In this document: positions 13,570-34,852 of the stretch, piece after piece
Layout of the letters: every line of letters begins with the position of its first letter
How positions within the stretch are numbered: position 1 is the first letter of the stretch
Source: Verrucomicrobiales bacterium
Lineage (GTDB): Bacteria; Verrucomicrobiota; Verrucomicrobiia; Limisphaerales; JAQGOY01
DNA: 51,586 bases
Assembly: GCA_028293375.1 (NCBI GenBank)
Contig: JAQGOY010000228.1
Coordinates: forward strand, 1-51,586
Direction: 5' to 3'
Program-made: the position numbers and the translations under genes
The notes under the pieces: generated by a model
Told to the model about the DNA's origin: nothing
What the model saw: only the letters and a program-made list of their open reading frames with translations
Databases searched by the model: none

Positions 13570-15200
13570 GTCTGTGATCTTTCCAACTTATTTAAAATAA
13601 TAGGCAGAAGTTGTTTTTTGCGGGATACGCACCCCTCCCATAGCACTGCCTGGCCGTCCTCACCGAGGATATGGCGCCGTCGGTGTTGTTGGGAGTCGTC
13701 CAGCAGGACAAGGCTTTCCCCTCGAAGGGAGTCGGTAATCATCAAGGCCACAAAATCCCAGTCCGTTTGCTGCCGTTTTAATTTCAGCGCACAGGCAAAT
13801 TCGTTTATTTTCTCCGGAAGGAGCCGGGTGCGGTCCACCGTTTCCACCTGCGCCACACCAAATCGAATTTTGCCGGAACTGAATTCTTTTAAATCCTTGT
13901 TAACCAGCTCGAGAGCTGTTTTGGACAGCGTTTCGTCATTGCGCAACAGCACTTCCAGTCCAAATTCCTGCAACTCCACTTCGGCTTTGGCCGCGAGGAT
14001 TTTTGCCAGTTTGCGATCAATATCGGTCGTCGTCGGAGAAGTCAGGAGTAGAGTATCTGCGAGCATCGCGCCAAGCAGAAGAATGGCCTGGCCTTTGGTG
14101 ACTCGGACTTTGCTTTCCTGGAATTTACAGGCGATGATTGTCGCTGTGCTTCCAAGCGGACGGCAATCCACGCGAATGGGGTCTACGGTCTCCAGGCTGC
14201 CCACGCGGTGATGATCCACGATTTCGAGTATTTGAGCTTCTTCGATTCCACGTGCGGCATGGTTCTGCTCGAAATGATCCACGAGAATAATCTTTTGCTT
14301 TGGCGCATTGATTAATTCCGTCCGCGAAAGTACGCCAACCAGTTCGCCGCCAGGTCCCACCACCGGCAGAGCGTAGGGTTTGTGTGAAACCAGATCCTTG
14401 ACCTCGGCGAGGCTTTGTTCAGGGCTCAATTGCGGAAATTCCCGCGCCATCAGATTCCTGACGGGAATGGCGAGCGAGAGTTTTGAAGTAAGCGAGAGCA
14501 GGGAACCCCGGAACTGGTAAATTCCCATGCCGGAATCTTTTTGATATTCGGCAAAGGAGCACTTCACGCGTTTCGGGGAGCAAATGATCACCGCCGCAGC
14601 ATTGTGTTCGCGGGCCTGGGTGATCGATTCAATATCATCAGTGCAAAGCAGGATATCGCCACCCCGGATATTCTCGGGGGTTAACGAAAGACATCCATCT
14701 GCCGGACGGGCAGCGGGCTTCCAGCATTTTAATCCAAGGCCCCGAACCAGATCGTCCAGCTGGAAGAGAACTCCGAGAAAATTCTCCAGGTTAAAATGAT
14801 AAAAATAGTGACCCATCGGAAGTCGATCGCTTAGAATGCCTTCCAATTTCCCCGAACCGCTCACTACCGGAACAAGGCTCAACTGGAATTCGGTAATCAG
14901 CCGAATGGCGTCACCGAGAGGCGCCTCGATGGGGACGGTTTGGATGGCGCGGCGTGCCACGTCGCCCACTTTGATATTGAGGTCAGGAACAATTGGGGGA
15001 AGCTGGATGCCCGCTTTTTCGAAGAGCCACTCCGTTTGAGGGGAAAAATCGCCAAGGGAAACGCTTTGGTATTTGGTTTTGCGGTCCAAAGATTGCAGTA
15101 GCTGAGCGTATACCACGGCCGATACCACGGAGTCCGTGTCGGGACGCCGGTGGCCGGCAACCAGAACAGGTCGTTCGTGAGTAAAACTGCGTTTCTTCAT
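13566..15200 (-). CDS. ppaC: Mn-dependent family II inorganic pyrophosphatase with CBS/DRTGG insert
   Basis: GHRRPDTDS, ILVDH, IVDHH, SPTTT, DLKEF, VSRKKQ; two CBS domains. Confidence 0.9.
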   Translation of the reverse strand: MKKRSFTHERPVLVAGHRRPDTDSVVSAVVYAQLLQSLDRKTKYQSVSLGDFSPQTEWLFEKAGIQLPPIVPDLNIKVGDVARRAIQTVPIEAPLGDAIRLITEFQLSLVPVVSGSGKLEGILSDRLPMGHYFYHFNLENFLGVLFQLDDLVRGLGLKCWKPAARPADGCLSLTPENIRGGDILLCTDDIESITQAREHNAAAVIICSPKRVKCSFAEYQKDSGMGIYQFRGSLLSLTSKLSLAIPVRNLMAREFPQLSPEQSLAEVKDLVSHKPYALPVVGPGGELVGVLSRTELINAPKQKIILVDHFEQNHAARGIEEAQILEIVDHHRVGSLETVDPIRVDCRPLGSTATIIACKFQESKVRVTKGQAILLLGAMLADTLLLTSPTTTDIDRKLAKILAAKAEVELQEFGLEVLLRNDETLSKTALELVNKDLKEFSSGKIRFGVAQVETVDRTRLLPEKINEFACALKLKRQQTDWDFVALMITDSLRGESLVLLDDSQQHRRRHILGEDGQAVLWEGCVSRKKQLLPIILNKLERSQT

Positions 15201-15553
15201 ATCGAGGCTGGCATAAGGCGCCTGACTTCTGAGACGAGTTGAGTCGGACTAAATGGCTTGGTGAGGACAATTTCGTTCTCATTTGACCGCGGCAGCAGCA
15301 TGCCGGGAGGAATCTCTGACATGCGGATCACGGGTATGTGTTTTTGGGTCATGCGAAGAAGTGCAATCACCGGATCGAACAACTCGCGGCTGGAATCATC
15401 CAAAAGCACCATGCTGAACTGATTCAGCTGCACCGCCCTTAAGGCGTCTTCGCCGTTCCGGGCCTGCACCATTTCATACCCGGCTCGCTCCAAATGATGT
15501 TGCAGCAGCCTTAGCATGAACAATTTTGTGTCTAGTACCAGAATTTTGTTCAT
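15197..15553 (-). CDS. Single-domain response regulator receiver (atypical)
   Basis: KILVLD, ARNGEDAL, VLLD, LTKPFS. Confidence 0.8.
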   Translation of the reverse strand: MNKILVLDTKLFMLRLLQHHLERAGYEMVQARNGEDALRAVQLNQFSMVLLDDSSRELFDPVIALLRMTQKHIPVIRMSEIPPGMLLPRSNENEIVLTKPFSPTQLVSEVRRLMPASI

Positions 15554-17346
15554 AACTTCTTGTTTTCGTCCATCAATACAATGAATGTTTGATCATCGTA
15601 AAGTGTTCCACCATCTTGAAATTTGTTAAGCTCGAGAACGAGGGATTCCTTTAACTCCTCCGCAGAATTAAAGGACAAGGCGTTTTTTTCCATCCAGTTA
15701 AAGAGTCGGTTTTGTCCAAAGAAATCGTTGGTCGCGTTTTGGGCATCGGTGACACCGTCGGTGTAAAGCAGGACGCGGGAACCCGCAGGGAAGGGCAGGG
15801 TCGCCTCTTCAAAAGTTGTATTGGGAAGTATCCCCAGCGGCAAACCGTCCGGTGCCACCGTTGTCAGGCTGGTCTGGCCGGGGCTCATGATCAGAACCGG
15901 GCAATGGCCTGCCGTGGCTGCGCTCAAGGTCCGCTCAGTCATATTGATTTTCAATACTTCTGCCGTGATGAACATGCCCACGTCCGAAAGCTCATCGAAA
16001 AGCATGGTGTTGATTCGAGTCATGATCGCGCGAGGACTGTTGAGCTCGGTAGTGGCCCGCAACGCGCTTCGAAAGATCGCTGCAAACATCGCTGCCGGAA
16101 TTCCTTTGCCCATCACATCCGCGATGATGGCCAGGACGCAGTTTCCATCCTGGTGGATAACCGTGTAGAAATCGCCCCCCACCTGCCTGGCGCTTTCGCA
16201 ATGGGCGGCCAAACCAAGCCCTGGCAATACGGGCAGTTGTTTCGGCAACAGTGCCCGCTGAATATTCTTTGCGATTTCCAGTTCGTGCGAAGTCAGCCGG
16301 TGACTCATCTGTTCTTCACGGAACCTTGCGTTCACGATTTGAATGGCGAGAAAATCGGCAAAGGTATGGATGACGTTGGCGTGCGCGGCAGTGAAGGACG
16401 AACGGCCCATTTCCTTTCCAACAGTCAAGGTTCCCACCAGCTTACCTCCAAAATAAAAGGGATGCACCAGGCCGATCGAACTTGGTTTGATTTCCTGCCA
16501 GGCCCCCTGATTGGTTTTGGAAAGTTTGGGATCAAACCAAACATCCTGTCGCGACAGGGCAGCGCTGACTTCGGCATGTGATCCTTGCTCCGGAACATTT
16601 TCCAGGGAAAGGGAATCCAGTTTCAGCGAAGGTTCAGAAGCTGTAAAAACAATGAGTCGTTCTTCTTCCTTGGGCACAACTCGCAAAACGAACCAGTCCG
16701 AAGAAGTAATCTGGAGCAGATCAGAGCACAGGCAGCGGGCAAATTCGGCAAGGTCATCGGTTTTTCCAAGGTCTGTGCCGCAACGAAAAATGGCCGAGAG
16801 ACTTTCGTAACACGAACTTAACTCCTCCGTCATGTCATGAATGATTTGCTCATTCTCGGCGAGACGATCCTTGTAGGCCTCGAGCGTCGGTTCGGAGGAA
16901 TAATTGTCCGGAAGCACCGCTCCGCTTCCGTACTTTTTGAGAATGAGTGTGTTGCCTGCGGCCGCTTTTTCGTAGCTCACATCGTCCATGATCGAACGCA
17001 TCAGGAAAATTCCGCGACCGCTTTCGCTTTCGTGTTCCGGCAGTCGAGATTGCAGCGGAAGGGTGAAACCGGGTGTGTGATCCTCAATTCTCAGTTCCAG
17101 CGTATTGTCGTCCGTAATGGCGTGCATGACGATGGGTTTGGAACGCCCTGCCTCTTCGCAATAGAGAACGGCGTTGTTGCAACCCTCTACCATGGCCAGT
17201 TCGCAGGCCATGATGTCCTCTTCCGTCGTGCCGTTTTGTTTGAGAAAACGGCAAAGCTGCGAGACTGCATCTCGAACCATTTCCAGTTGGCAGGGCAGGG
17301 TTACCGAGAAACGTCTTGAAACCGTGGTTGCGGCTGACAAAAGCAT
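15550..17346 (-). CDS. RsbW-like HATPase kinase + GAF-like + SpoIIE/PP2C phosphatase fusion
   Basis: ELAMVEGCNNAV, IEDHTPGF, ESGRGIFLM; IQRALLP, VGGDFY, IADVMGKG, LLYTDGVTD, DDQT. Confidence 0.9.
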   Translation of the reverse strand: MLLSAATTVSRRFSVTLPCQLEMVRDAVSQLCRFLKQNGTTEEDIMACELAMVEGCNNAVLYCEEAGRSKPIVMHAITDDNTLELRIEDHTPGFTLPLQSRLPEHESESGRGIFLMRSIMDDVSYEKAAAGNTLILKKYGSGAVLPDNYSSEPTLEAYKDRLAENEQIIHDMTEELSSCYESLSAIFRCGTDLGKTDDLAEFARCLCSDLLQITSSDWFVLRVVPKEEERLIVFTASEPSLKLDSLSLENVPEQGSHAEVSAALSRQDVWFDPKLSKTNQGAWQEIKPSSIGLVHPFYFGGKLVGTLTVGKEMGRSSFTAAHANVIHTFADFLAIQIVNARFREEQMSHRLTSHELEIAKNIQRALLPKQLPVLPGLGLAAHCESARQVGGDFYTVIHQDGNCVLAIIADVMGKGIPAAMFAAIFRSALRATTELNSPRAIMTRINTMLFDELSDVGMFITAEVLKINMTERTLSAATAGHCPVLIMSPGQTSLTTVAPDGLPLGILPNTTFEEATLPFPAGSRVLLYTDGVTDAQNATNDFFGQNRLFNWMEKNALSFNSAEELKESLVLELNKFQDGGTLYDDQTFIVLMDENKKL

Positions 17347-17648
17347 TAGCGTTTAACAATTTCGAATATCCGATGCATGCGAGTGAGTTCCAGGATCTGT
17401 TGGACAGGGGGGGTTGGATTGACAAGCCGCACCATGCCGTTGCGGCTGCAGGTGGTTTTGTGAAGGCTGATCAGGGCGCCAAGGCCACAACTGTCGACGA
17501 ACATGGTTTGAGAAAGGTCTATCTCTATGATTTTGTGAGCCTCGGATAGGGAGGCCCTTACCTGATCCCGAAAGGAATTGGAGTTTGCTGCCGCTAATTC
17601 CTTGATGCCTGTGATGCTAAGGGTTTCACCGTTGGTTTGAGCTTTCAT
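17346..17648 (-). CDS. STAS-domain anti-sigma factor antagonist (RsbV/SpoIIAA-like)
   Basis: IDLSQTMFVDSCGLGALI, ILELTRMHRIF; phospho-Ser conserved. Confidence 0.92.
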   Translation of the reverse strand: MKAQTNGETLSITGIKELAAANSNSFRDQVRASLSEAHKIIEIDLSQTMFVDSCGLGALISLHKTTCSRNGMVRLVNPTPPVQQILELTRMHRIFEIVKR

Positions 17649-17715
17649 AAATAATCGAGTATTTGGGAGTTGGCTTGGCGTGGCGCCTGCCCGATTCCAA
17701 TTTTTTACTGGATTG

Positions 17716-17751
17716 ACTATAGAAAATTGGCGCGATCATTCACAATCAGGG
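17716..17751 (-). promoter_or_regulatory. Putative promoter of STAS-glycan operon: CCCTGA-TTGTGA-N18-TATAGT
   Basis: Read on minus strand; the 12-mer CCCTGATTGTGA is identical to the one upstream of the hybrid kinase. Confidence 0.6.
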
Positions 17752-17842
17752 GGCGGCATCTTTCCCCCTACGGGTCGTTGCCCCTATACGGAGTGAGCCA
17801 TTCCCCGGTGCGCGGTCAAACCGCTGCTAACACCCACAAATG

Positions 17843-17873
17843 AAAGGGGTTTTGCCAGCAGCAAAACCCCTTT
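17843..17873 (-). terminator. Perfect 13-bp hairpin, probable intrinsic terminator after the udk-sugar transferase unit
   Basis: AAAGGGGTTTTGC-CAGCA-GCAAAACCCCTTT, 23 nt after the 17897 stop; T-rich tail on minus strand. Confidence 0.7.
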
Positions 17874-17896
17874 AAAACAGGCCAAAACCCAATGTC

Positions 17897-19192
17897 TCAG
17901 TTCGGCGCAGTCCTGCCGAAATGGAGAATTTTTTTGACCAGGGTTGCTTCCCGGCCACTGGTTTCCTTTTTCGAAAGAAAGAATCTTTTGATGCAGGCGA
18001 CAATGATTTTCAAGTCCAGTTTCCAATCCGCCTGCACGGAATAAAAACTCGAATGTGCTTTGGCCTCTTCACAAAATGGCTCAATGCATCCCTGAGCTTC
18101 GGATAATGACATGAACCCCAGCGGAACGGAGAGCCAAAGCTTCTCAAAATCGTTCTCCAATTTTCTTGCCTCGTTGGGCGTCAAAGGCCGGTTTCCAACC
18201 CAAACGAACTCCCCCTTGACAATATTCCACATTTGCGGCCATCGGCGAAGTCCGCCTTGAAAGAACGGAAACTCAAAATAAATAATCGGCTTGGCCTGTG
18301 GATAGCCTTGTGGAGGTGTCGCCCGGCGGGGACGAACTATCCGTTGTCCCATCAGTAGCATCCACCCCGCAGCAAGGCCCACGATCGGGCTCGTAACTAC
18401 CATCAACCCGGCCGCCACCGCTCGTCCGCATAATCGTTGCAGATACTGCGAGTTTTCCAACGGCCGCAGGGAGCAGAGGAGAAAAGCGTCCACGATCTTC
18501 GTATGGGAACCGGTATTCCAGTTCATTAACTGAGCTCCCGAGGCAATCGATTGATTGAGAGTAATGGCCGAACCTACGAATGTCTGGGAACCGATTAGGC
18601 TTTCTCGGATTTCTGCGCCTTCCTCGACAACCACTTCGTTTTCCAGGATGACGCACGGGCCCACCACCGCCTTGTTACCGATTTTTGCGCGATCACCAAT
18701 CCAACAGGGGGCAGTTAGCACTGCGGTGCTGGAGATGTTGGCCTGTCGACCAACCCAGATGCCCGGGCGTATTTCTTTTACTCCGACCCGGTTGGACATG
18801 TCTGGATGGTCCAGGTTTTGTGAAACTACACGAAAGAGATCGCCAAGGCTGGAAAAAAGTTTCTGGTCAGGTTTCCATGGAAAGGAGTCTGCCACATGGC
18901 ACTCGATCCCGGCACCCGCCTTGTCAGCGGCCTCAGCAAGCGAAAGCTCGCGCGCCGTTGGCTGGACTAACAGTTTAACACCCCACCTTTCGCCTTCCCC
19001 GAGCGTTTCACGGATTTTCTCCGGCCTGTCACTGGCGAATAGGGTGATTTCCTTGCAGCCGCGCAAAACCAAATGCTCTATCCAGTATTCCAATAATGGT
19101 TTACCGAGCAGGGTAAATAGGCCCAGGGGGGCATTTTCGGCGAGGGATGCTACGGATTCTCTCTGGTGTGGGCAGATGAGACATGCATTCAT
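17897..19192 (-). CDS. Degenerate NDP-sugar pyrophosphorylase-like domain + hexapeptide (LbH) + degenerate bacterial sugar-transferase domain
   Basis: LLGKPLLEYWIEHL...LGEGERWGV (NTase fold), hexapeptides PCWIGDRAKIGNKAVVGPCVIL, C-terminal WPQMWNIVKGEFVWVGNRP. Confidence 0.8.
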   Translation of the reverse strand: MNACLICPHQRESVASLAENAPLGLFTLLGKPLLEYWIEHLVLRGCKEITLFASDRPEKIRETLGEGERWGVKLLVQPTARELSLAEAADKAGAGIECHVADSFPWKPDQKLFSSLGDLFRVVSQNLDHPDMSNRVGVKEIRPGIWVGRQANISSTAVLTAPCWIGDRAKIGNKAVVGPCVILENEVVVEEGAEIRESLIGSQTFVGSAITLNQSIASGAQLMNWNTGSHTKIVDAFLLCSLRPLENSQYLQRLCGRAVAAGLMVVTSPIVGLAAGWMLLMGQRIVRPRRATPPQGYPQAKPIIYFEFPFFQGGLRRWPQMWNIVKGEFVWVGNRPLTPNEARKLENDFEKLWLSVPLGFMSLSEAQGCIEPFCEEAKAHSSFYSVQADWKLDLKIIVACIKRFFLSKKETSGREATLVKKILHFGRTAPN

Positions 19193-19196
19193 TTTG

Positions 19197-19922
19197 TTAA
19201 TAAGCTCCTTTACTAAACAGAACCGCAGGCACTGTCTTCAACAGGATGCGCACATCGCCCAAAAACGATTGGCTTTCGATATACTGCACATCCAATAGAA
19301 CCTGTCCTGGAAAATCGATTTCGCTTCTTCCGCCGATCTGCCAAAGACAGGTGATTCCTGGCTTCGCAAGCAATCTGCGTCTGTCTTGCAAAGTATACAA
19401 TGCGACTTCACGAGGTACTGGGGGTCGGGGACCCACTAATGACATATCCCCTTTTAACACGTTGAAGAATTGAGGAAATTCATCAAGCGACAATTTTCTC
19501 AGCCATTTCCCCACTTTAGTGATGCGGGGATCGTCCTTCATTTTAAAGGTGATGCCCTCGGTGTGTTGATTTTTGGCAAGCAATTCTTTCATTTTAGCTT
19601 CGGCATCCACGCACATGGAACGGAACTTAAACATTTTAAATTCTTTCCCATCCTTGCCCACGCGGCGTTGCGCAAAGATCACCGGCCCGCCGTCCTCCAG
19701 TTTCACCAGTAGCGCCAGAAGGATAAAAATCGGCGAAAAAACGAGGATAAACATCAAGCTGGCCAGCACGTCAAAAAACCGTTTCACCGCAAGCGTCGCT
19801 GCCAGCATCCACTGCCAGGAATGGCGCTTCCAGGCGGAATAAGCTCTCAGGCGCATTCGCCCTGTCTTGGTTCGCATTAACTCCAGTCTTTCCACTGTCG
19901 GCGCTGTTGAATGGTTCACCAT
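19197..19922 (-). CDS. Priming sugar transferase (polyprenyl-phosphate glycosylphosphotransferase, small PGT)
   Basis: KRFFD, KFRSM, DDPRITKVG, SLDEFPQFFNVLKGDMSLVGPRP, KPGIT. Confidence 0.95.
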   Translation of the reverse strand: MVNHSTAPTVERLELMRTKTGRMRLRAYSAWKRHSWQWMLAATLAVKRFFDVLASLMFILVFSPIFILLALLVKLEDGGPVIFAQRRVGKDGKEFKMFKFRSMCVDAEAKMKELLAKNQHTEGITFKMKDDPRITKVGKWLRKLSLDEFPQFFNVLKGDMSLVGPRPPVPREVALYTLQDRRRLLAKPGITCLWQIGGRSEIDFPGQVLLDVQYIESQSFLGDVRILLKTVPAVLFSKGAY

Positions 19923-19929
19923 ACATCTA

Positions 19930-20538
19930 TTAATTTGCTAAGGACTTCTTTATTTCCATTGCCAACTCGGTCACGGTAGCCTCGTCCAGCGGATGATCGA
20001 GAACCCGGGTCGCCCATCGTTTTTGGCTCTCCACATAGCGCTCGTGCATCGGACGTACTGTCCCATGAAGCTGTTCCCGAATGGATTCTTCACTTCGCCC
20101 CCTTTCTGCCAGATCCCGATTGATTCTTCGGGAGAATCTCACATCTTCAGGGCAATTGAGGAAATAGCGATGTTTAAAGTGCTTTCTTACCGAAGGTTTG
20201 CGCAATAACCAGAGTCCTTCGAAGATTACGAAGGAAGTTTTGGGCAGGTCCTGAAACGTCTCTCTCCTCGTGTGGGAGCTAAAATCGTAGGAGGGAATTT
20301 CACAAGCATGGCCGTTTCTACAATTTTCCAAAACTTTCACTAAACTTCCCCAGTCAATCGTCCTGGGATGGTCGAAATTAACCATGCTTCTTCGTTTTGG
20401 AGACAAATGAGATTGGTCGCGATAGAAATTATCAAGCGAGCACACACCCGCTTCAACTAGTCTTTTTTGCAGCATTTCTGCCAACCACGTTTTTCCGGAA
20501 CCGCTGCCGCCTGTTATTGCTATTAAATGTGAACTCAT
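19930..20538 (-). CDS. udk: Uridine kinase
   Basis: GGSGSGKT Walker A, LDNFYRD, NFDHP, YDFSSHTR, FEGLW, RDLAERGR, VRPMH. Confidence 0.9.
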   Translation of the reverse strand: MSSHLIAITGGSGSGKTWLAEMLQKRLVEAGVCSLDNFYRDQSHLSPKRRSMVNFDHPRTIDWGSLVKVLENCRNGHACEIPSYDFSSHTRRETFQDLPKTSFVIFEGLWLLRKPSVRKHFKHRYFLNCPEDVRFSRRINRDLAERGRSEESIREQLHGTVRPMHERYVESQKRWATRVLDHPLDEATVTELAMEIKKSLAN

Positions 20539-20576
20539 CGCTCGTACATATGGCAGGTAATTCTCCTGCCAGAATC

Positions 20577-20612
20577 GTTATAACCGATCCTGGTAGATGG
20601 GTTCAATCAGGA
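20577..20612 (-). promoter_or_regulatory. Putative promoter of udk unit: TCCTGA-TTGAAC-N18-TATAAC
   Basis: Same CCYSA-TTG signature as other promoters in the window. Confidence 0.55.
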
Positions 20613-20672
20613 GTCAGGAGCGAAAATTTCCAAGGGTTTTCCCCTGTTGCTTCAGGGATTACATCAGCCGTG

Positions 20673-21887: not shown

Positions 21888-21979
21888 CCTGAACAGCATG
21901 GAGGCAATGGACTTCTCAGCCAAACGTGGAATGCCTTATAATGAGGTAGACACAAAGCTGAGAAATCGTGGCGATAGTT

Positions 21980-22014
21980 GCCCGATTGCTGAGCAACATC
22001 CGTGTTTCTAACCT
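21980..22014 (+). promoter_or_regulatory. Putative promoter of YqjD/E-like operon: GCCCGA-TTGCTG-N17-TAACCT
   Basis: CCYSA-TTG signature, 17-nt spacer, TAnnnT -10. Confidence 0.55.
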
Positions 22015-22050
22015 GCCTTCAAGGTCATGGCACCTTCATGGGATTATAAT

Positions 22051-22365
22051 ATGGAAACATCAAATGGCACCACGGAACTCTCGGAATCGACTCAAAAACT
22101 CACGGAAGATTTGTCCAACATGGCGAAGCATACCCGCGAATTGATGGAAAGCGGCATGGAAAACCTGGACGAAAATACTGCGGAGCTCAGAACCCGGCTG
22201 CGGCAGGCCCTCGATGTGGCGAAAGATACTTGCGAAAAATTGGAAGCCAAAGCCGTGCAGGGAGCCAAAGCCACCGACAGGGCCATTCGTTCCAACCCGT
22301 ATCAGTCGATTGGTATCGCGCTGGTGGCAGGATTTGTAATTGGGACACTTATCAAACGGAGATAA
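22051..22365 (+). CDS. ElaB/YqjD/DUF883 tail-anchored membrane protein
   Basis: Helical N-terminus, ATDRAIRSNPYQSIGIALVAGFVIGTLIKRR tail. Confidence 0.9.
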   Translation: METSNGTTELSESTQKLTEDLSNMAKHTRELMESGMENLDENTAELRTRLRQALDVAKDTCEKLEAKAVQGAKATDRAIRSNPYQSIGIALVAGFVIGTLIKRR

Positions 22366-22366
22366 C

Positions 22367-23052: not shown

Positions 23053-23072
23053 GTTATATTGACCGCTTGCAA

Positions 23073-23099
23073 AGCCTTCCAGTGGAAGGCTCTTTTTTT
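23073..23099 (+). terminator. Intrinsic terminator
   Basis: AGCCTTCC-AGT-GGAAGGCT then C-T7. Confidence 0.75.
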
Positions 23100-23187
23100 G
23101 ACCGGACACTACAGGGCGCACTATCGGCCATCATCAAAAACCTCTACCAGCCTGCTGGGGTGCTGTGGGTTGATGACATAGAAAGAC

Positions 23188-27000: not shown

Positions 27001-30000
27001 TTCATGGCGCGCAACCTGACAGACCAGGTGCGTAACATTGCGGATGTGACCAAGGCTGTCGCTGCAGGTGACCTTTCCAAGAAGATCACGGTGGACGTCA
27101 AAGGCGAAATTCTGGAACTCAAAAACACCATCAACACCATGGTGGACCAGCTCTCTTCATTCGCTTCTGAAGTAACTCGCGTGGCCCGCGAAGTCGGAAC
27201 CGAAGGCAAACTGGGTGGCCAGGCCGATGTGCGCGGCGTCGCCGGAACGTGGAAAGATTTGACCGACAACGTCAACTTCATGGCCAACAACCTCACGGAT
27301 CAGGTGCGTAATATCGCCGACGTGACCAAAGCGGTGGCAGCCGGGGATCTCTCCAAAAAAATCACCGTGAATGTGCGCGGCGAAATTTTGGAATTGAAAG
27401 ACACCATCAACACCATGGTGGATCAACTCCGCTCGTTCGCTTCGGAAGTAACCCGCGTGGCCCGCGAAGTCGGAACCGAAGGCAAACTGGGTGGCCAGGC
27501 AGACGTCAAAGGCGTCGCAGGAACATGGAAGGATTTGACCGACAACGTCAACTTCATGGCCAACAACCTCACGGATCAGGTGCGTAATATCGCAGACGTC
27601 ACCAAGGCGGTGGCGAACGGTGACCTTTCGAAAAAGATTACGGTCAATGTGCGTGGTGAAATTTTGGAATTGAAAGACACCATCAACACCATGGTGGACC
27701 AACTCCGCTCCTTCGCTTCTGAAGTGACCCGTGTGGCCCGCGAAGTTGGAACCGAAGGAAAATTGGGTGGCCAGGCCGACGTCAAAGGAATCTCAGGAAC
27801 CTGGAAAGATCTGACCGACTCGGTGAACTTCATGGCGCGCAACCTGACAGACCAGGTGCGTAACATCGCCGACGTCACGAAGGCCGTGGCGGCAGGGGAC
27901 CTTTCCAAAAAAATCACGGTCGACGTCAAAGGTGAAATTCTGGAATTGAAGAACACCGTCAACACCATGGTGGACCAGCTTTCTTCTTTTGCTTCTGAAG
28001 TAACCCGCGTGGCCCGCGAAGTCGGAACCGAAGGCAAACTCGGCGGTCAGGCCGAAGTGAAAGGTGTGGCCGGAACCTGGAAGGACTTGACCGATTCCGT
28101 GAATTTCATGGCAGGTAACCTCACCGGTCAGGTCCGTAATATTGCTGCCGTGACCACCGCCGTGGCCAATGGTGACCTTTCCAAAAAGATCACGGTGGAC
28201 GTGAAAGGTGAAATCCTTGAACTCAAGGACACCATTAACACCATGGTGGATCAACTCCGGTCCTTCGCCTCTGAAGTGACCCGTGTCGCCCGCGAAGTCG
28301 GAACCGAAGGAAAACTCGGCGGCCAGGCGGATGTGAAGGGCGTAGCCGGAACCTGGAAGGATTTGACGGACAACGTTAATTTCATGGCCTCCAACCTCAC
28401 CGCGCAAGTTCGTAACATTGCCGACGTGACCAAGGCAGTCGCTGCGGGTGACCTTTCCAAAAAGATTACAGTCGATGTTAAAGGTGAAATTCTCGACCTC
28501 AAAAACACTGTTAACACCATGGTGGACCAGCTCCGTGCGTTCGCTGCGGAAGTAACCCGTGTCGCTCGCGAAGTGGGAACGGAAGGAAAACTTGGCGGCC
28601 AGGCGGAAGTGCAGGGTGTGTCGGGAACGTGGAAGGATTTGACCGACAACGTGAACTTCATGGCCGGTAACCTGACCAACCAGGTCCGCGGTATTGCGAA
28701 AGTTGTGACCGCTGTGGCCAATGGCGACTTGAAACGGAAGCTGACGGTGGAGGCCAAAGGCGAAATCGCCGAACTGGCAGATACCATCAACGGCATGACT
28801 GATACACTGGCTATCTTTGCTGATCAGGTGACAACCGTCGCCCGCGAAGTCGGTGTTGAAGGAAAACTCGGCGGTCAAGCCAGTGTCCCCGGGGCTGCGG
28901 GAACTTGGCGCGATTTGACGGATAATGTCAATCAGTTGGCTGCTAACCTGACTACTCAGGTGCGCGCGATTGCGGAAGTGGCCACTGCCGTCACCAAAGG
29001 CGACCTCACTCGTGCTATTCAGGTCGAAGCTCAGGGCGAAGTCGCTGTGCTCAAGGATACGATCAATGAAATGATTCGTAACTTGAAAGACACCACTCTC
29101 AAGAACTCGGAACAGGACTGGCTCAAGACCAACCTCGCCAAGTTCACCCGTATGTTGCAGGGTCAAAAAGACCTTATCACGGTCGGTCGCCTGATTCTAT
29201 CCGAACTCGCTCCCGTGGTCTCCGCTCAGCATGGCGTCTTCTATATGATGGACAATGCTCGCGATGACCATCACTTGAAATTGTTGGCCAGCTATGCTTA
29301 TCGCGAAAGAAAGACCGTTCAGAATCGTTTCGTCATGGGCGAAAGCCTTGTGGGTCAGTGCGCATTGGAAAAAGAAAAAATCCTGCTGACCAATGTCCCT
29401 GCGAACTATATTCAGATCTCTTCGGGATTAGGTGAGGCTAAACCGTTGAACCTCATTGTCCTGCCCGTGCTCTTCGAAGGTCAGGTTAAGGCGGTGATTG
29501 AATTGGCCTCGTTTGATCGATTCAGCCCCACCCACCAAACCTTCCTGGATCAGCTCACGGAAAGTATTGGTATCGTCTTGAATACGATTGAAGCCAACTC
29601 CCGAACCGAAGATCTTCTCAAGCAATCTCAGTCTCTTGCCAAAGAACTTCAAAGCCAGCAGGAAGAACTGCAGCAGACCAACGCCGAGCTCGAAGACAAA
29701 GCAAAGCTCCTGGCCATGCAGAATGACGAAGTCGAACGCAAAAATCGTGAAGTCGAGCAAGCTCGTCAGGCACTGGAAGAAAAAGCTTCCCAGCTCGCCC
29801 TGACTTCGAAATACAAATCCGAATTCCTCGCGAACATGTCGCACGAACTCCGGACACCGCTAAATAGCTTGCTGCTTCTGGCTCGCCAATTGGTCGATAA
29901 CCCGGAAAAGAATCTTACTGGGAAACAGGTGGAATTCGCTAAAATTATCCATGGGTCTGGAAATGACCTGCTGGCCTTGATTAACGATATTCTCGATCTC

Positions 30001-31875
30001 TCCAAGATTGAATCCGGAACTGTCTCGGTTGATGTCGGCGATCTTCGGTTCAACAACATGCAGGATTATGTCGAGAGGACGTTCCGTCACGTTGCGGATT
30101 CCAAAGGACTCGAATTCCACATCAACATGCATCCCAACCTGCCTCGTTCGATTCAGACGGACGTTAAACGGTTGCAGCAGATCATCAAGAACCTCCTGTC
30201 CAACGCGTTCAAATTTACCGAAAAAGGGCATGTCGTCATGGAAGTCCAGATGGTCCGCACAGGCTGGACTTCGGACCAGGTCACCCTCAACCAGACTGGG
30301 GCGGCAATCGCCTTCTCAGTTTCAGATACCGGTATCGGCATCGCTCCCGAGAAACAGGCCATCATCTTTGAGGCCTTCCAGCAGGCGGACGGAAGCACCA
30401 GCCGCAAATACGGAGGCACAGGCCTTGGTCTTGCCATCAGTCGCGAAATTGCGCGTTTGCTCGGCGGTGAAATTCAAATTGCAAGTAAGGTCGGCGAAGG
30501 CAGTGTGTTCACTCTCTATTTGCCGCAAAACTTCATGATCGTTCGGCCCAGCCGCCAGGGACAGGATACGGAATCCTCCCTTGCTTCGCTGCCGACCCAC
30601 AATCCAAGCAGCTTCCCTTCCGCTGCCACTGTTGCGAAGGCCCTTCCATTGCCCGCTCCTGTGGAGAGGGAAATTGAGGATGACAGGTCGAAGCTGGACA
30701 ACGGAGATAGGGTGGTCCTGATCGTTGAAGACGATTACGACTTCGCTAATTTCCTTTTCAATCTCGCTCACGAACAGGGAATGAAGGCCATTGTCGAAAC
30801 CCGCGGGCTTAAAACATTCGAGTTGGTGAAGGAATACCAACCCCATTCGATTACCCTCGACCTCAGTCTTCCAGATATTGACGGCTGGAAAATTCTGGAG
30901 CGCTTGAAGGACGACTCCAACACACGTCATATTCCCATCTACATCATCTCTGGTGACGACGATCGCGAACGCGGGTTACGGCAGGGCGCCATGGATTTCC
31001 TGACCAAGCCGGTGACCAAAGAAGCCTTGGAAGGGGCCTTCGACCGGATGCGATCCTTTATCGATCGGTCGGTGAAAAATCTTCTGGTGGTGGAAGACGA
31101 TCAGATTCAAAGACAACATATCGTCGATCTCATCGGTGACGGTGATGTTCAGACGACCGCCGTTTCAACAGGTGTCGAGGCGTTGGAAGCCATCAAGTCC
31201 AATCACTTTGATTGCCTGGTGCTGGATCTTGGATTGCCAGACATGAATGGTTTCGCGTTCATCGAGGAAATGCGCAAGACAACTGGGAAAGATATCCCAA
31301 TCATCGTTTACACCGCCCGTGAACTCACCCGCAAGGAACAAAGCAAGCTCCAGAAACTCGCTCAGAGCATCATCATCAAAGATGTGCGCTCTCCAGAGCG
31401 GTTGCTCGATGAAACGTCGCTTTTCCTCCACCGAAACGCGGCTCAACTTCCTGAGCCGAAACGGCAGATGCTCGAAAAATTGCACCAGGCCGACGCTGTG
31501 CTCGCCGGCAAAAAGGTTCTCATTGTCGATGACGATATTCGAAACATCTTTGCCCTTACCAGTATCCTCGAACGATACAATCTTCAGCTCTCGTCCGCCG
31601 AAAATGGCCATGACGCGATCGAAAACCTGGACAAAAATCCCGACATGGATGTTGTCCTGATGGATATCATGATGCCTGAAATGGATGGCTACGACACGAT
31701 CAAGCACATTCGGAAAAATCCTAAGTTCAAGTCACTGCCAATTATCGCTGTCACCGCCAAAGCGATGAAGGGAGACCGTGCGAAATGCATTGAGGCGGGC
31801 GCGTCGGATTATCTGTCTAAACCTGTCGATCCCGAGCAATTGTTATCTACGCTGCGGGCTTGGTTGTATCGGTAA
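24076..31875 (+). CDS. Soluble poly-HAMP hybrid histidine kinase (poly-HAMP, GAF, HisKA, HATPase, three REC); OsaA / fungal group III-like
   Basis: 92-aa repeats [19 protein letters not shown]...TWKDLTD; [14 protein letters not shown]; [24 protein letters not shown]; three receivers; no TM segment. Confidence 0.95.
24649..29064 (+). repeat. 16 tandem 276-nt (92-aa) coding repeats, each a HAMP pair
   Basis: TW(K/R)DLTD codons start at 24763+276n for n=0..15 (last 28903) with no indels. Confidence 0.95.
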
Positions 31876-31883
31876 AAACTGTG

Positions 31884-31912
31884 GTCCCGGGCCGGATATC
31901 CGGCATCGGGAC
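31884..31912. other. GC-rich hairpin after kinase stop, flanked by a 10-bp direct repeat
   Basis: GTCCCG-G-GCCGGATATCCGGC-AT-CGGGAC; TTGTATCGGT at 31864 and 31913. Confidence 0.55.
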
Positions 31913-31957
31913 TTGTATCGGTTGTAAAACTCATTGTATTAAATTAATCAACAAGTT

Positions 31958-32614
31958 ATGTCCGCAAAAAAACCAAAGTGCAAAATCCTCATCGTGGATG
32001 ACCATCCGATCATGAGGGAGGGAATCGTGCAGCTCATTAACCACGAGAAGGACTTGATGATATGTGGCCAATATGAAGATGCGGGCGAAGCGTTCAAAGG
32101 CGTAGAGGATCATCGTCCGGACCTTGCCGTCATCGACATCTCTCTTAAGGGCAGCAGTGGCATTGAACTTCTCAAGAACATCAAATGCAACTTTCCCAAT
32201 GTGCTCGTACTGATGCTCTCCATGCATGATGAATCGCTTTATGCCGAACGGGTGCTCCGCGCTGGCGCTGCTGGATATATCATGAAACAAGAGGCCACCG
32301 AGCGGATTTTGATTGCCATCCGCAAAGTCCTGAATGGAGAGGTCTATCTGAGTGAAAGAATGTCCACCAAACTGATGCATCAGTTGGTCGGAGGCCGCGC
32401 GGCTTCGGGCGGTTCACTTATGGAAAGGCTGAGTGATCGCGAACTCGAAGTTTTTGGTTTGATCGGTCAGGGGAAAGGCACTCGTCAGATTGCTGAACAA
32501 CTTCACTTAAGCGTCAAGACCATTGAATCTCACCGCGCACACATTAAAGAAAAGCTGAATCTGAAGAATGCCACTGAATTGGTCCACCGTGCCATTCAGC
32601 TCCGAGGTGAATAG
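31958..32614 (+). CDS. NarL/FixJ-family response regulator (REC + LuxR HTH)
   Basis: ILIVDDHPIMREG, VIDISL, LSMHDE, YIMK, LSDRELEVF...LSVKTIESHR. Confidence 0.95.
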   Translation: MSAKKPKCKILIVDDHPIMREGIVQLINHEKDLMICGQYEDAGEAFKGVEDHRPDLAVIDISLKGSSGIELLKNIKCNFPNVLVLMLSMHDESLYAERVLRAGAAGYIMKQEATERILIAIRKVLNGEVYLSERMSTKLMHQLVGGRAASGGSLMERLSDRELEVFGLIGQGKGTRQIAEQLHLSVKTIESHRAHIKEKLNLKNATELVHRAIQLRGE

Positions 32615-32725
32615 GTCCATCTGATATTATCCAGGCGCTCATAAAACTTGAGCGCCTTTTGCTGGGCCTAGGGGATGCCCCGAAGCTGTTATCCCCTGCT
32701 TCCGCCTTTCCGGACTCCTGAGCCT

Positions 32726-32760
32726 CCCCGATTGCGATCTTTTCTGATTCCTCATCAAAT
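32726..32760 (+). promoter_or_regulatory. Putative promoter of second regulator: CCCCGA-TTGCGA-N17-TCAAAT
   Basis: CCYSA-TTG signature, extra CCTGA 10 nt upstream, TAGGG-N5-CCCGA at about 32669. Confidence 0.45.
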
Positions 32761-32790
32761 GGCTTTGTTGACGGAGCTCTGCTTCTTACT

Positions 32791-33468
32791 ATGAAGGCCA
32801 ATGGAACAAAAGTAGCACAAAAAAGAATCTTATTAGTCGATGATCATCCCTTACTGCGGCAGGGGATTGCCCAACTCATCAATCAACAGGCCGATCTGAT
32901 GGTGTGCGGCGAAGCCGATGATGCGCAAAAAGCTGTTACAGCTATTGAGACAACCAAGCCTGACTTGGTCGTGCTCGATATTTCTCTAAAAGGCAGTAGC
33001 GGAATCGAATTGTTGAAAAACGTCAAAGTCCGGTTTCCTCAGTTATCCATCCTGATGCTTTCTATGCATGACGAAACGGTTTTCGCTCAACGTGCCCTTC
33101 GCGCTGGAGCTTCCGGCTACATCATGAAGCAGGAGTCCACGGACAAGATTCTCGGGGCGCTTCGGAAAGTCATCAATGGAGAAGTTTACGTGAGCGACAG
33201 GCTCGGAGCTCGCATGCTGACCCAATTGGTCGGCGGCAAGGTTATGGCTCCATCCTCTCCCATTGAAGAACTCAGCGACCGCGAGCTCGAAGTATTTAGC
33301 TTGATAGGGCAGGGCCATGGAACGCGGCCAATTGCAGAGAAATTGCACTTGAGTGTAAAGACCGTCGAGTCGCACCGTGCTCATATCAAAGAGAAACTCC
33401 ATCTCAACAGTGCCGCCGAACTGGTCCATCACGCTATTCAGTGGGTGCAAAGTGAAAGCATTGGATAG
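32791..33468 (+). CDS. NarL/FixJ-family response regulator, paralog of upstream gene
   Basis: ILLVDDHPLLRQG, VLDISLKGSSGIELLKN, LSDRELEVF...LSVKTVESHR. Confidence 0.95.
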   Translation: MKANGTKVAQKRILLVDDHPLLRQGIAQLINQQADLMVCGEADDAQKAVTAIETTKPDLVVLDISLKGSSGIELLKNVKVRFPQLSILMLSMHDETVFAQRALRAGASGYIMKQESTDKILGALRKVINGEVYVSDRLGARMLTQLVGGKVMAPSSPIEELSDRELEVFSLIGQGHGTRPIAEKLHLSVKTVESHRAHIKEKLHLNSAAELVHHAIQWVQSESIG

Positions 33469-33486
33469 CAACCAGTTCCATCAAGG

Positions 33487-33522
33487 TTATACCTGAGCCC
33501 TTTCGCGCGGCCTCAGGTATAA
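33487..33522. terminator. Hairpin after second regulator (possible terminator or stability element)
   Basis: TTATACCTGAG...CTCAGGTATAA 11-bp arms; no clean U tract. Confidence 0.45.
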
Positions 33523-33569
33523 GCTGAATTTCTTCTACTTCTCCTTGTCCATGGGTTCGGCGGGTGGCT

Positions 33570-33604
33570 GCCTCATTGTGACCCGTTTGCCTCAGACCTA
33601 CCTT
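33570..33604 (+). promoter_or_regulatory. Putative leaderless promoter: GCCTCA-TTGTGA-N17-TACCTT-N5-ATG
   Basis: CCYSA-TTG signature; -10 ends 5 nt before ATG 33610; no SD. Confidence 0.55.
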
Positions 33605-33609
33605 TGGCT

Positions 33610-34626
33610 ATGAAAACAAACAATCATTTCCGAAGAATTATGCTCGCAGCTTCTGCGGGAGCTCTTTTAACAGGCTCTTCCGCTTTTGCTAATCATGAGG
33701 TTTATGTGGATTCCTCCGAGACCAGGATGGCCCATCCGAGCGCTGAACTGCGCACTGACACCCGCTCCTCAATCTATGACCCCTCTGGCTCCGAAATTCA
33801 GGTCTATCATCGCGATTCCAACAGCAGCGGACTCTCGGCAGGGTTCAATTCGGATTTATCGATGAATGCCGACATCGACGCCCAGGCTGATCGCATCCTC
33901 CGCATGTATCAAAAAGGCAAAATGCCTGCGGAAATCACCGACCGCGAATTTCATCAGGTCAACGGACAAACTCTTTTTCCAAGGTTTCAAGCTTCTCGCG
34001 GAGACTATGACAACATCCGTACCGAGCGGTATCATCATTCTTCCGTGCGTTCGGATTCCATGATGGAACCTGCCGGCGCATCAGCAACAGTTTCCACCTC
34101 GTCTGATCATGATTTGATTCGTGATACCAGTTCCACCATCACGGTGGCGCCATCAGTGACTTCCAGTTCCACGAATGATTGGCAAAAAGGATATTATAAT
34201 AGTCAATCCAACCGTGGCGCGGAAATCAAGGATCCTGCTGGCGCCGATATCTCCGTCCGTGCCACCCAGAGCCCTGACTTGGCTCCATCGGCGGAGATTA
34301 GTTCCTCTGCGACTAGTCCCAGCAACACCTCCGACGTAATTGTTAGCAATCCTTCTGTAACCGTCTTTCAGGACAATTCACTCTCCAGCACTAACTCGCA
34401 GTTGGGCGGTATCAATAATCAGAACAAGGATGGAATCCGACTTGGGGATAAGAATGCCTCCAATCGCGTGAACGAAAATTCGAGCTCCTTGAACTCAAGC
34501 ACCAGTTCCGATTCGGAAATAAAATCCGATTCCGACAGTCCAGCAAACGGTGGTATCAACAACCAGACCAAGGATTCTCAAAAATCCAGTGGCAACGATT
34601 CCACCATCCACAACGAATCCAAGTAA
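33610..34626 (+). CDS. Secreted Ser-rich, probably disordered hypothetical protein
   Basis: Signal peptide MKTNNHFRRIMLAASAGALLTGSSAFA; low complexity; (D/E)P(S/A)G(S/A) x3; GGINNQxKD x2. Confidence 0.75.
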   Translation: MKTNNHFRRIMLAASAGALLTGSSAFANHEVYVDSSETRMAHPSAELRTDTRSSIYDPSGSEIQVYHRDSNSSGLSAGFNSDLSMNADIDAQADRILRMYQKGKMPAEITDREFHQVNGQTLFPRFQASRGDYDNIRTERYHHSSVRSDSMMEPAGASATVSTSSDHDLIRDTSSTITVAPSVTSSSTNDWQKGYYNSQSNRGAEIKDPAGADISVRATQSPDLAPSAEISSSATSPSNTSDVIVSNPSVTVFQDNSLSSTNSQLGGINNQNKDGIRLGDKNASNRVNENSSSLNSSTSSDSEIKSDSDSPANGGINNQTKDSQKSSGNDSTIHNESK

Positions 34627-34685
34627 GTCTTGATAACGGGATGACAGGGGAGGCTTGACTCCCTCAACAATCAGAAAGGCCTAAA

Positions 34686-34805
34686 ATGAAAGTAATGGTT
34701 AAAAGAAAATACGAAGAAGGCAAGGTCGGCTGGTTCATTCTTTGGCTCATGGGAGTGCCAGTGTCGGTTCTTTTCGTGCTCTTCCTCTTGAGAGGTTGCA
34801 CTTAA
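34686..34805 (+). CDS. Small single-TM protein (39 aa, absent from ORF track)
   Basis: AGAAAGG SD; MKVMVKRKYEEGKVGWFILWLMGVPVSVLFVLFLLRGCT*; followed by terminator. Confidence 0.75.
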   Translation: MKVMVKRKYEEGKVGWFILWLMGVPVSVLFVLFLLRGCT

Positions 34806-34823
34806 AATGTAAGTCTCATAATC

Positions 34824-34852
34824 AGGCGCGACTCTCCAGTCGCGCCTTTTTT
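34824..34852 (+). terminator. Intrinsic terminator
   Basis: AGGCGCGACT-CTCC-AGTCGCGCCT followed by T tract. Confidence 0.88.

Follow-up and report, generated by a model that had tools for sequence, protein, structure and literature searches.

General stress responses are known through the sigma factors RpoS, SigB and EcfG in a few phyla, and for most soil lineages we know of nothing described about them. In Escherichia coli, elaB and the genes yqjD, yqjE and yqjK, which stand in that order, belong to the RpoS regulon, and YflT of Bacillus belongs to the SigB regulon. During our analysis of a contig of 51,586 nucleotides (nt) from a Verrucomicrobiales bacterium (assembly GCA_028293375.1, contig JAQGOY010000228.1; the whole stretch is called the window here) we saw genes of what appear to be these same small-protein families, and one of the family of Listeria lmo0937, beside two NarL-type response regulator genes (NarL1 and NarL2), with the gene of a very long poly-HAMP hybrid histidine kinase among them and a glycan locus containing a partner switch on the other strand. 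A first-pass annotation had taken these genes for a lineage-specific general-stress system wired through the NarL-type regulators. The reading we put forward, tentatively and with somewhat less than even confidence, is that three evolutionarily separable modules (the small stress-type genes with NarL1 and NarL2, the kinase, and the glycan locus) form one circuit in this genome, tied together by the two regulators and a shared promoter element.

Hybrid kinases are known to feed NarL-type regulators through an HPt protein in multistep phosphorelays such as BarA/UvrY and RcsC/D/B, and FruA of Myxococcus is a regulator of the NarL/FixJ type. The closest described kinases are AskA and AskB of Myxococcus, which are reported to work together with AskC, a third kinase, during development and to bind FruA (PMC7643160); OsaA of Streptomyces, described as acting with OsaB and OsaC in osmoadaptation, where OsaC brings SigB activity back to its basal level after osmotic stress (PMC10117811); and the fungal group III kinases, described as osmosensing in a source that also treats the structure of poly-HAMP arrays (PMC13446029). 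As to the partner switch, SypE, a kinase–REC–phosphatase, is reported to control SypA in the syp polysaccharide locus of Vibrio (PMC10120452, PMC4517449). In Anabaena, All4160 is described as a STAS–Bac_transf fusion in which the phosphorylation state of the STAS domain controls heterocyst polysaccharide (bioRxiv 10.64898/2026.04.08.717354), and OrrA, a salt- and drying-responsive regulator, is reported to control a module of the All2284/All2285 type (bioRxiv 10.64898/2026.04.08.717354; PMC9804601).

Stress-type genes beside two NarL-type regulators

As contig C160, the window belongs to a metagenome bin (genome G000) of 281 contigs and 4.1 Mb with a completeness of 75.6%, and the listed sequencing runs are labelled soil metagenome. 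Genes were called from an open reading frame (ORF) listing together with Pfam scans and an NCBIfam scan of the window ORFs. All genes named in the first-pass annotation were found in their places, and its remark that the window holds neither a sigma factor gene nor an HPt domain agreed with our scans, which gave none among the window ORFs scanned. The stress-type genes, the kinase and the regulators lie as follows:

22027–22365, plus strand: DUF883/ElaB-YqjD-like membrane-anchored protein (PF19029, 39 bits, cut-off 27; possible true start ATG 22051)
22367–22753, plus strand: YqjE-like protein (Phage_holin_3_6/DUF1469; PF07332, 79 bits) with two transmembrane segments
22732–23052, plus strand: YqjK-like small protein of 106 residues, its gene third in line behind DUF883–YqjE here and in loci L211 and L212
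23073–23091: strong terminator-like hairpin after the YqjK-like gene
23243–23785, plus strand: YflT/DUF1269-like glycine-zipper membrane protein (PF11181, 27.0 bits, cut-off 26.2, marginal)
23806–23955, plus strand: lmo0937-family membrane protein of 49 residues (NF033488, 54.8 bits, cut-off 30)
24040–31875, plus strand: probably cytoplasmic poly-HAMP hybrid histidine kinase of 2611 residues (Pfam; likely start ATG 24077)
31958–32614, plus strand: NarL1, a REC and GerE response regulator (Pfam), with a hairpin on each side
32791–33468, plus strand: NarL2, a REC and GerE response regulator (Pfam), paralogue of NarL1
33604–34626, plus strand: secreted Ser/Asn-rich low-complexity protein of 340 residues with a signal peptide and no family match
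34824–34847: terminator-like hairpin after the secreted-protein gene, followed by a gene for a major facilitator superfamily transporter

The small genes appear to be of the same families as yqjD–yqjE–yqjK and elaB of E. coli, YflT of Bacillus and lmo0937 of Listeria, and the first three keep the E. coli order. Matches to the DUF883_C, YqjE and lmo0937 models stood above cut-off, that to YflT was marginal and that to the ElaB equivalog was weak (33.6 bits, below the NCBIfam cut-off of 139). The YqjK-like protein had no Pfam or NCBIfam match, and YqjK-like clusters in a protein atlas, at 0.77–0.80, gave a sub-threshold lead only. Whereas the E. coli and Bacillus genes are under stress sigma factors, those of the window and its relatives stand beside NarL-type response regulators. 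NarL1 and NarL2 are 64% identical to each other and score 90 and 98 bits, respectively, against Response_reg and 66 and 58 bits against GerE; the acceptor Asp, Ser and Lys are legible in both.

A search of the order with NarL1 returned a large paralogous family, from which the best locus of each of 29 genomes was read with 1.5-kb flanks. Genes for YflT/lmo0937 or DUF883/YqjE lay within 1.5 kb in six of the eight orthologue loci (70–79% identity) as compared with one of the 21 paralogue loci (53–61% identity), and the genomes with orthologues span six families of the order, none of them the family of the window. One relative, G120, has YflT–lmo0937–NarL1–NarL2, which is the exact order of the window minus the kinase. 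G107 and G029 have YflT–lmo0937–NarL1, with NarL2–YflT on second contigs; G049 has YflT–NarL1, a NarL2 fragment, a PRC/BON protein and YflT; G045 has NarL1–NarL2, a PRC protein and YflT; G140 has DUF883–YqjE–(YqjK-like)–NarL1; and in G137 a DUF883 gene lies at some remove before NarL1. The YflT orthologues that adjoin NarL1 or NarL2 orthologues in relatives are 80–90% identical to that of the window.

Secreted PRC-barrel/BON proteins follow the NarL pair in three relatives, at the place where the window has its 340-residue secreted protein. We tried an assignment of the latter (33604–34626) to PRC-barrel/BON and rejected it, since no family matched and only the signal peptide and short xPAGA motifs were common to it and the PRC–BON protein of locus L206. 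In several relatives, read by eye, a YflT gene stands directly after a BON-domain-like coding region (L208 8690–8939 and 12667–12916; L215; L168), and this BON-like neighbour adds a further osmotic-stress-type protein to the YflT clusters.

Judged from these neighbourhoods, the NarL-linked stress-gene cluster is real and conserved, and it gives the strongest support for the earlier view that stress-type genes are wired through NarL-type regulators: the association between the two, which the first-pass annotation had drawn from this window, recurs beside NarL1 orthologues and hardly at all beside paralogues. NarL1 and NarL2 most likely control the genes of the small membrane proteins and their own.

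The poly-HAMP kinase and its place in the cluster

By Pfam the kinase has 17 HAMP (PF00672) and 17 HAMP_2 (PF18947) stretches, a GAF domain, and a core made of HisKA (residues 1926–1993) and HATPase_c (residues 2041–2163) followed by three Response_reg stretches; spurious SpoIIID and HTH_6 matches also fall within the HAMP array. The array consists of 16 exact di-HAMP units of 92 residues (residues 202–1673), of which the inner ones are 88–99% identical, and the underlying DNA is a tandem repeat with a period of 276 nt (24652–28685; 14.6 copies, 80% matches). Since the protein identity of the inner units exceeds the DNA match of the array, the sameness of the units seems to be held by selection at the protein level and not to come from recent duplication. 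No hydrophobic stretch was visible by eye in the translation, and each of the three receivers there retains its acidic pocket, acceptor Asp, Thr/Ser and Lys.

The kinase shares with AskA/AskB, OsaA and Nik1/Os-1 a long array of 92-residue di-HAMP units, HisKA, HATPase_c and several receivers and is probably soluble, as they are, and AskA and AskB have likewise been reported with spurious SpoIIID and HTH_6 matches in their arrays (PMC7643160). It differs from these kinases in having about 34 HAMP domains, in the GAF domain between array and kinase core, and in the two NarL-type regulators downstream, where the known or usual cases have the CheY-type OsaB or a REC–PAS–kinase. On domain make-up the kinase is a member of the known AskA/OsaA-type poly-HAMP hybrid kinases, and the family is widespread. 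Our cross-phylum set, the best 80 loci of at least 600 matching stretches in species-representative genomes, included Nostoc/Calothrix, Acidobacteriota, Verrucomicrobiota, Planctomycetota, Bacteroidota, Proteobacteria, Gemmatimonadota and 16 Streptomyces records, the last matching the window kinase over its whole length with 52–58% identity in the best segment. Among these 80 loci the non-repeat C-terminal 991 residues (28900–31875) were 56–69% identical between phyla, the proteins compared being Verrucomicrobiota-like, cyanobacterial, proteobacterial, acidobacterial and planctomycete, and this unusually high identity points to gene transfer or strong constraint. The closest named relative among them was that of a 'Verrucomicrobiales bacterium' metagenome-assembled genome (L024; 69% over the 991 residues). 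At 2611 residues the window kinase exceeds the 17 full-length frames of the order's sample (1992–2495 residues), but it is not the longest known, as the longest cross-phylum match spans up to 11.1 kb (L060).

The first-pass annotation had treated the kinase as the partner of the NarL regulators, and as a conserved partnership this did not hold. Kinase orthologues (E ≤ 1e-90) were present in 34 of the 151 genomes of the order, G000 included. Several results on their surroundings weigh against a circuit in which kinase and regulators are fixed partners. The NarL pair was downstream of the kinase in none of the 20 orthologue loci of the order that we examined; of the small stress-type genes, YflT lay at a distance of 4.7 kb in one of these loci and lmo0937 at 3.7 kb in one. 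When the first same-strand downstream ORF was scanned in 91 kinase loci of all phyla, the families found were Response_reg (23), HATPase_c (16), HisKA (14), PAS families (about 10) and FtsK (10, which we take to be the Streptomyces loci), and GerE was outside the 25 commonest. Among the best 80 cross-phylum loci a full-length NarL-type match lay within 2 kb of the kinase only in L072, L073 and L094, and a YflT homologue lay within 10 kb in four and lmo0937 in two. Finally, G107, G029, G137 and G117 carry a NarL1 orthologue and gave no poly-HAMP kinase match. Of the eight genomes that carry a NarL1 orthologue four thus have the kinase, as compared with 33 of all 150, and the four without it indicate that the regulators can work with another kinase.

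What usually stands beside the kinase is a second kinase. REC and HisKA–HATPase matches lay directly 3' of it in most of the 20 orthologue loci, and in G026 the neighbours were by Pfam a REC–PAS–HisKA–HATPase protein and a receiver. This likeness of the order's kinases to the Myxococcus system extends to their adjoining a REC-bearing kinase, AskC being reported to interact with AskA via receiver domains (PMC7643160). In G003 (L018 3437–8703) the genes after the kinase orthologue encode a protein with a CheR domain, a CheB methylesterase and a REC–REC–PAS–kinase–REC protein, which hints at methylation-based adaptation of poly-HAMP kinases; on another G003 contig (L019) a universal stress protein gene lies near an N-terminal kinase fragment.

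The window genome has kept the usual neighbour elsewhere. Contig C39 (4 kb) encodes at 1996–3949 a REC–PAS–kinase and a receiver, the kinase being 54% identical to the usual neighbour gene, and no poly-HAMP kinase sequence was found upstream of it on that contig. Since the neighbour is retained there by itself, we conclude from these gene positions that the poly-HAMP kinase gene has changed place in the lineage of the window. It is, on the same comparison, a lineage-specific newcomer to the stress/NarL cluster, and only here is it located between lmo0937 and NarL1. In G120, G107 and G049 an ORF of about 65 residues with two transmembrane segments lies between lmo0937 (or YflT) and NarL1 (L206 9488–9837, L209 1898–2285 and L208 9453–9865); the kinase occupies that place in the window.

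The partner switch of the glycan locus

The genes on the minus strand are the following:

17346–17648, minus strand: STAS single-domain protein (PF01740, 62 bits), first gene of its sub-operon
15550–17346, minus strand: fused RsbW-like Ser kinase–GAF–PP2C protein (HATPase_c_2 at residues 20–138, GAF_2 at 197–335, SpoIIE at 401–591)
15197–15553, minus strand: divergent single-domain receiver of 118 residues (30.1 bits, cut-off 30.2)
17897–21923, minus strand: upstream glycan sub-operon, encoding a family 4 glycosyltransferase (GT4), a PRK-like kinase, a Bac_transf transferase and a nucleotidyltransferase/hexapeptide protein with a degenerate Bac_transf domain
715–15200, minus strand: glycan locus downstream of the switch (family scans)

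The locus stretches well past 15197, the left edge of the first-pass annotation, down to about 715. After the receiver the gene order is CBS–DHH–DHHA2, phosphodiesterase, FkbM methyltransferase, a protein like a nonribosomal peptide synthetase (NRPS) with condensation, adenylation, peptidyl carrier and thioesterase domains, flippase, and then a family 2 glycosyltransferase, GT4, a membrane protein with no assigned function, GT4 and PLD, all on the minus strand. That annotation had also placed the STAS gene at the head of the glycan locus, which is true of its own transcription unit only. The 248-nt gap before STAS contains a terminator-like hairpin and then a promoter-like TTGTGA-N18-TATAGT, so that STAS heads a separate unit, but the GT4, PRK-like kinase, Bac_transf and hexapeptide genes precede it on the same strand and it is therefore not the head of the whole locus.

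The switch is an integral part of glycan loci across the order. Matches to the RsbW–GAF–PP2C fusion (E ≤ 1e-30) were found in 38 of the 151 genomes, and the 29 best loci from other genomes were tallied. STAS lay directly upstream of the fusion in 27 of the 29, the remaining two being cut by contig ends, and a receiver lay downstream in 24; a hexapeptide gene was upstream in 14 and a phosphodiesterase downstream in 12, and Bac_transf and hexapeptide genes preceded STAS in 10 of 18 wider views. In an alignment of 27 STAS sequences the residues D52-S53-x-G55-L56-G57 were invariant. Read in translation, the N and G boxes of the kinase and the metal motifs of PP2C are intact in the window fusion, while the receiver keeps the acceptor Asp and the Lys and has one of its two N-terminal acidic residues replaced.

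The Asp–Glu dyad of Bac_transf enzymes is catalytic, and in the priming transferase of the window it is intact (DEFPQ). The hexapeptide protein next to it (17897–19192; 431 residues) comprises a nucleotidyltransferase/left-handed-helix part, a membrane helix and the C-terminal half of Bac_transf, and it has RRWPQ (Arg–Arg) at the place of the dyad; we therefore read it as inactive, and it may be a pseudo-enzyme or scaffold. Its gene is the most constant upstream neighbour of STAS. Further downstream, 8126–13569 encodes the NRPS-like protein (partial condensation, adenylation, carrier and thioesterase domains), the FkbM methyltransferase and a type I phosphodiesterase, a set of genes that suggests an amino-acylated or phospho-substituted glycan.

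By domain make-up the switch resembles SypA/SypE of V. fischeri, with which it shares a small STAS protein with a phosphorylatable Ser, a single polypeptide with an RsbW-like N-terminal kinase and a C-terminal PP2C, the setting in a polysaccharide locus, and an output that is not evidently a sigma factor. The central domain of SypE is REC, whereas that of the window fusion is GAF and the divergent receiver is a separate downstream gene; the phylum and the glycan genes are also different. A second likeness is to All4160, the HenR phosphatase and the Alr3423 kinase of Anabaena, a STAS phospho-switch on a polysaccharide priming enzyme. The window STAS gene comes directly after two genes with Bac_transf domains and may be a split form of the cyanobacterial fusion, although in the window STAS is free-standing, kinase and phosphatase are fused, and binding between STAS and the transferase is putative. 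By analogy with the Anabaena fusion, the free STAS protein is suggested to act on the priming transferase. A structure prediction for the complex of STAS and the Bac_transf transferase, run without controls, gave 0.00 against a mark of 0.32 and speaks neither for nor against binding.

A third comparison is with OsaC, encoded beside osaAB, which has an RsbW-like kinase, sensor domains and PP2C and lies near a poly-HAMP kinase. Matches to the window fusion occurred near the kinase in 16 of the best 80 cross-phylum loci, namely in L065, in L100 and in 14 of the 16 Streptomyces loci, where they precede the kinase by 1.7–2.4 kb; those of Streptomyces are presumably OsaC itself. In the window, by contrast, fusion and kinase are 6.7 kb and nine genes apart, and no SigB-type sigma factor was found in the genome. 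The genome has 39 matches to sigma-70 region 2, mostly of the size of extracytoplasmic function sigma factors, and only four sigma genes with region 3: RpoD, two RpoS/RpoD-like group-2 factors, and FliA in a flagellar cluster. None was of the SigB/SigF (group-3) type, an absence that a genome of 75.6% completeness does not prove. Its partner-switch genes are few (3 PP2C genes, 4 STAS matches and 2 clear RsbW-like domains in all). They include a second module (contig C129, 238–4005; L106) with a kinase core, a receiver, a REC–PP2C protein, a free RsbW-like kinase and STAS, and no sigma gene was found among its scanned ORFs.

With the switch an order-wide part of the glycan locus in 29 loci and no SigB/SigF-type factor found, its earlier interpretation as an element of general stress control is not supported as it stood. 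By analogy with the described systems, it is better matched by a post-translational control of glycan synthesis in the manner of SypA/SypE than by a stress switch that works through a sigma factor. It belongs to the glycan locus and most likely acts after transcription.

A shared promoter motif and a tentative circuit

The linkage of the stress genes, NarL2, the kinase and the STAS sub-operon that had been proposed for this window found support in a promoter-proximal motif common to them, C[CT]GATTG[CT] (CYGATTGY). Its sites are:

21981: CCCGATTGC, 45 nt before DUF883
23190: CCGATTGT, 53 nt before YflT
24032: the 12-mer CCCTGATTGTGA, before the kinase
63 nt before NarL2: CCCGATTGC
17751: CCCCTGATTGTGA, before STAS, with TATAGT after it

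The sites before DUF883, YflT, the kinase and NarL2 lie 43–63 nt upstream on the coding strand and amount to four matches in 837 nt, where 0.05 would be expected from the 534 occurrences in the genome (0.065 per strand-kb); the genome-wide listing adds the site 101 nt before STAS, so that five of the nine first genes of transcription units in the span have the motif 43–101 nt upstream. Of the three genomic copies of the 12-mer CCCTGATTGTGA, two are those of the kinase and STAS promoters. By eye, a TAnnnT-like hexamer follows the motif by 24–31 nt in ten promoters of four genomes.

In relatives we examined the region upstream of STAS in 26 of the 29 loci, leaving out L124 and L127 (no STAS in the stretch) and L120. 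The strict motif stood before STAS in three, at −82, −82 and −108, and these were G120, G049 and G140, the very relatives in which the glycan locus and a NarL1 orthologue occur together; it was absent from the other 23, one of which has a looser match at −169, and a single match was seen on the reverse strand. When the four STAS upstream regions were aligned, only the motif block and a short GAARGnTGC block were conserved. In G049 the motif stands before DUF883 as well and in G120 before NarL2, and a GATAG variant of it precedes YflT in G120, G107 and G029. Since these relatives are kin, the co-occurrence of motif and NarL1 may partly reflect descent. Two other candidates were tried and dropped: the 7-mer CYGATAG, found before YflT in relatives, shows no enrichment in the window (10 matches against 5.6 expected, with 4 of 100 shuffles reaching 10), and a bipartite GATTG-N12-17-GTKTTT gave matches too few and too varied for a genome-wide regulon. 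As evidence for one regulon the distribution of CYGATTGY is suggestive.

A number of further points count against a single circuit. The motif is short and was defined post hoc from the window's own upstream regions, and it could equally be part of a −35 element. NarL1 and the gene of the 340-residue secreted protein have no upstream motif, nor do three more DUF883 paralogues on contig C26, and before the kinase orthologues of relatives it was found once in 18, which is chance level. Twenty other genes of the genome with the motif upstream have unrelated functions, none of them stress-type. In G049, G054, G120, G110, G140 and G034 separate contigs carry the kinase and the glycan locus, and the NarL cluster too is on contigs other than those of the kinase and the glycan locus in relatives. 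In two of the seven loci in which the region is visible, stress-type genes lie by the glycan locus: DUF883–YqjE is divergent to a GT4 gene in G049, and a NarL-like gene and DUF883 lie about 3.7 kb from GT4 in G054. Of the earlier idea of a single lineage-specific circuit, synteny upholds the cluster of NarL and small genes and not its linkage to the kinase or the glycan locus. The window kinase, finally, has a HisKA domain and three receivers but lacks an HPt domain. Elsewhere in the genome, HPt was matched by three CheA proteins, one hybrid kinase (contig C73, 27.8 bits) and one REC-x-REC protein (contig C247, 25.4 bits), and a stand-alone HPt protein was not found in this 75.6% complete genome. 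Three metatranscriptome runs of the same study were uninformative on expression, their only cover being a 37-nt piece (24539–24575) that fits partially.

With these points weighed, the circuit that we tentatively favour would work as follows; its signal, each of its phosphotransfer steps, the motif as a NarL site and the target of STAS we infer from domain content, gene positions and the described systems. A physical stress such as osmotic upshift or drying would alter the poly-HAMP array of the AskA/OsaA-type kinase, now away from its usual REC–PAS–kinase neighbour. Phosphoryl groups would pass from the His to the three intact receivers and then, directly or via an HPt, to NarL1 and NarL2. 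Phosphorylated NarL would act at CYGATTGY, next to the −35 of the DUF883, YflT, kinase, NarL2 and STAS promoters, and so reach both the envelope/dehydration-type stress cluster (DUF883–YqjE–YqjK-like, YflT–lmo0937, the secreted protein and the regulators themselves) and the second transcription unit of the glycan locus, which opens with the SypA/SypE-like switch. There the fused RsbW–GAF–PP2C protein would set the phosphorylation of STAS Ser53, and STAS would tune glycan synthesis after transcription, plausibly at the priming transferase. A more specific version, in which the kinase was captured from its ancestral partner into an existing NarL stress regulon, acquired the motif of that regulon and, from its place directly before the two regulators, closed a positive-feedback circuit that also switches on the glycan sub-operon, itself gated after transcription by the STAS switch, we consider unlikely.

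The strongest competing explanation, which we hold to be a serious possibility while doubting it, is that the genes are neighbours without a circuit. The kinase would then still signal through its partners on C39 after a neutral rearrangement, the NarL regulators would be fed by an unlinked kinase, the motif would be chance or a habit of −35 regions, and the glycan switch would answer only to its own GAF and receiver inputs. The separation of all three modules in relatives, the retention of the kinase's partner genes on C39 and the four of eight NarL1-orthologue genomes that gave no kinase match are all as this explanation would have them, and so are the functionally unrelated genes with an upstream motif and the genome-wide total of 53 upstream-located matches, which a rough estimate puts near chance placement. 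It accounts less well for the five coding-strand sites that lie 43–101 nt before five of nine units in a span of 16.5 kb, and for the exact 12-mer common to the kinase and STAS promoters. Nor would it lead one to expect that the STAS motif is kept only in the three NarL1-bearing relatives while the flanks have diverged, or that the kinase promoter has the motif only where the gene sits in the cluster.

It is also conceivable, and in our view quite improbable, that CYGATTGY and the TAnnnT-like hexamer some 17–19 nt further on are together the promoter of an alternative sigma factor, with the NarL regulators and the kinase as members of its regulon and not its masters. The constancy by eye of the distance from motif to −10-like hexamer (about 24–31 nt) over ten promoters of four genomes would suit such a promoter, as would the many sigma genes of the genome, two of them group-2-like. 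The −10-like hexamers are loose, however; a general sigma-70 promoter scan of 15100–35000 found 14 against 12.8 expected, which is chance level; no sigma or anti-sigma gene was found among the scanned window ORFs; and the STAS motif tracks the presence of a NarL1 orthologue in the genome.

A chimeric contig, in which the kinase does not truly lie between lmo0937 and NarL1, is very improbable: the genome is a 281-contig metagenome bin and poly-HAMP repeats do break assemblies, with orthologues at contig ends in G003, G026, G115 and G121, but the 7.8-kb kinase gene is continuous and open with unique flanks and exact 92-residue periodicity, both junctions are intergenic so that a chimera would take two precise joins, and the 12-mer of the kinase promoter is repeated before STAS at a distance of 6.3 kb on this contig.

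Elsewhere in the window, 40372–50274 holds a MoxR–DUF58–BatA/VWA–solute-binding–NHL–VWA/GATase1-like row that looks like a Bat-like aerotolerance operon and has no connection with the stress and glycan genes.

Since all parts of the system are of known kinds, its value lies in their wiring and in the evolution of the arrangement, which is new and lends itself to the study of two-component rewiring. The comparisons point to a set of stress-type genes that is tied to orphan NarL-type regulators in at least six families of a single uncultured order, and the motif, the two regulators and one candidate sensor, the poly-HAMP kinase, offer a testable entry point. The glycan locus would provide a third, widely conserved sigma-free partner switch for polysaccharide, after Syp of Vibrio and Hep of Anabaena, with GAF in place of the receiver. 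Were the kinase indeed captured by the NarL regulon, its soil order, uncultured and probably verrucomicrobial, would have a general-stress and desiccation response that is independent of sigma factors, and the comparison with its relatives would be a natural example of two-component rewiring.

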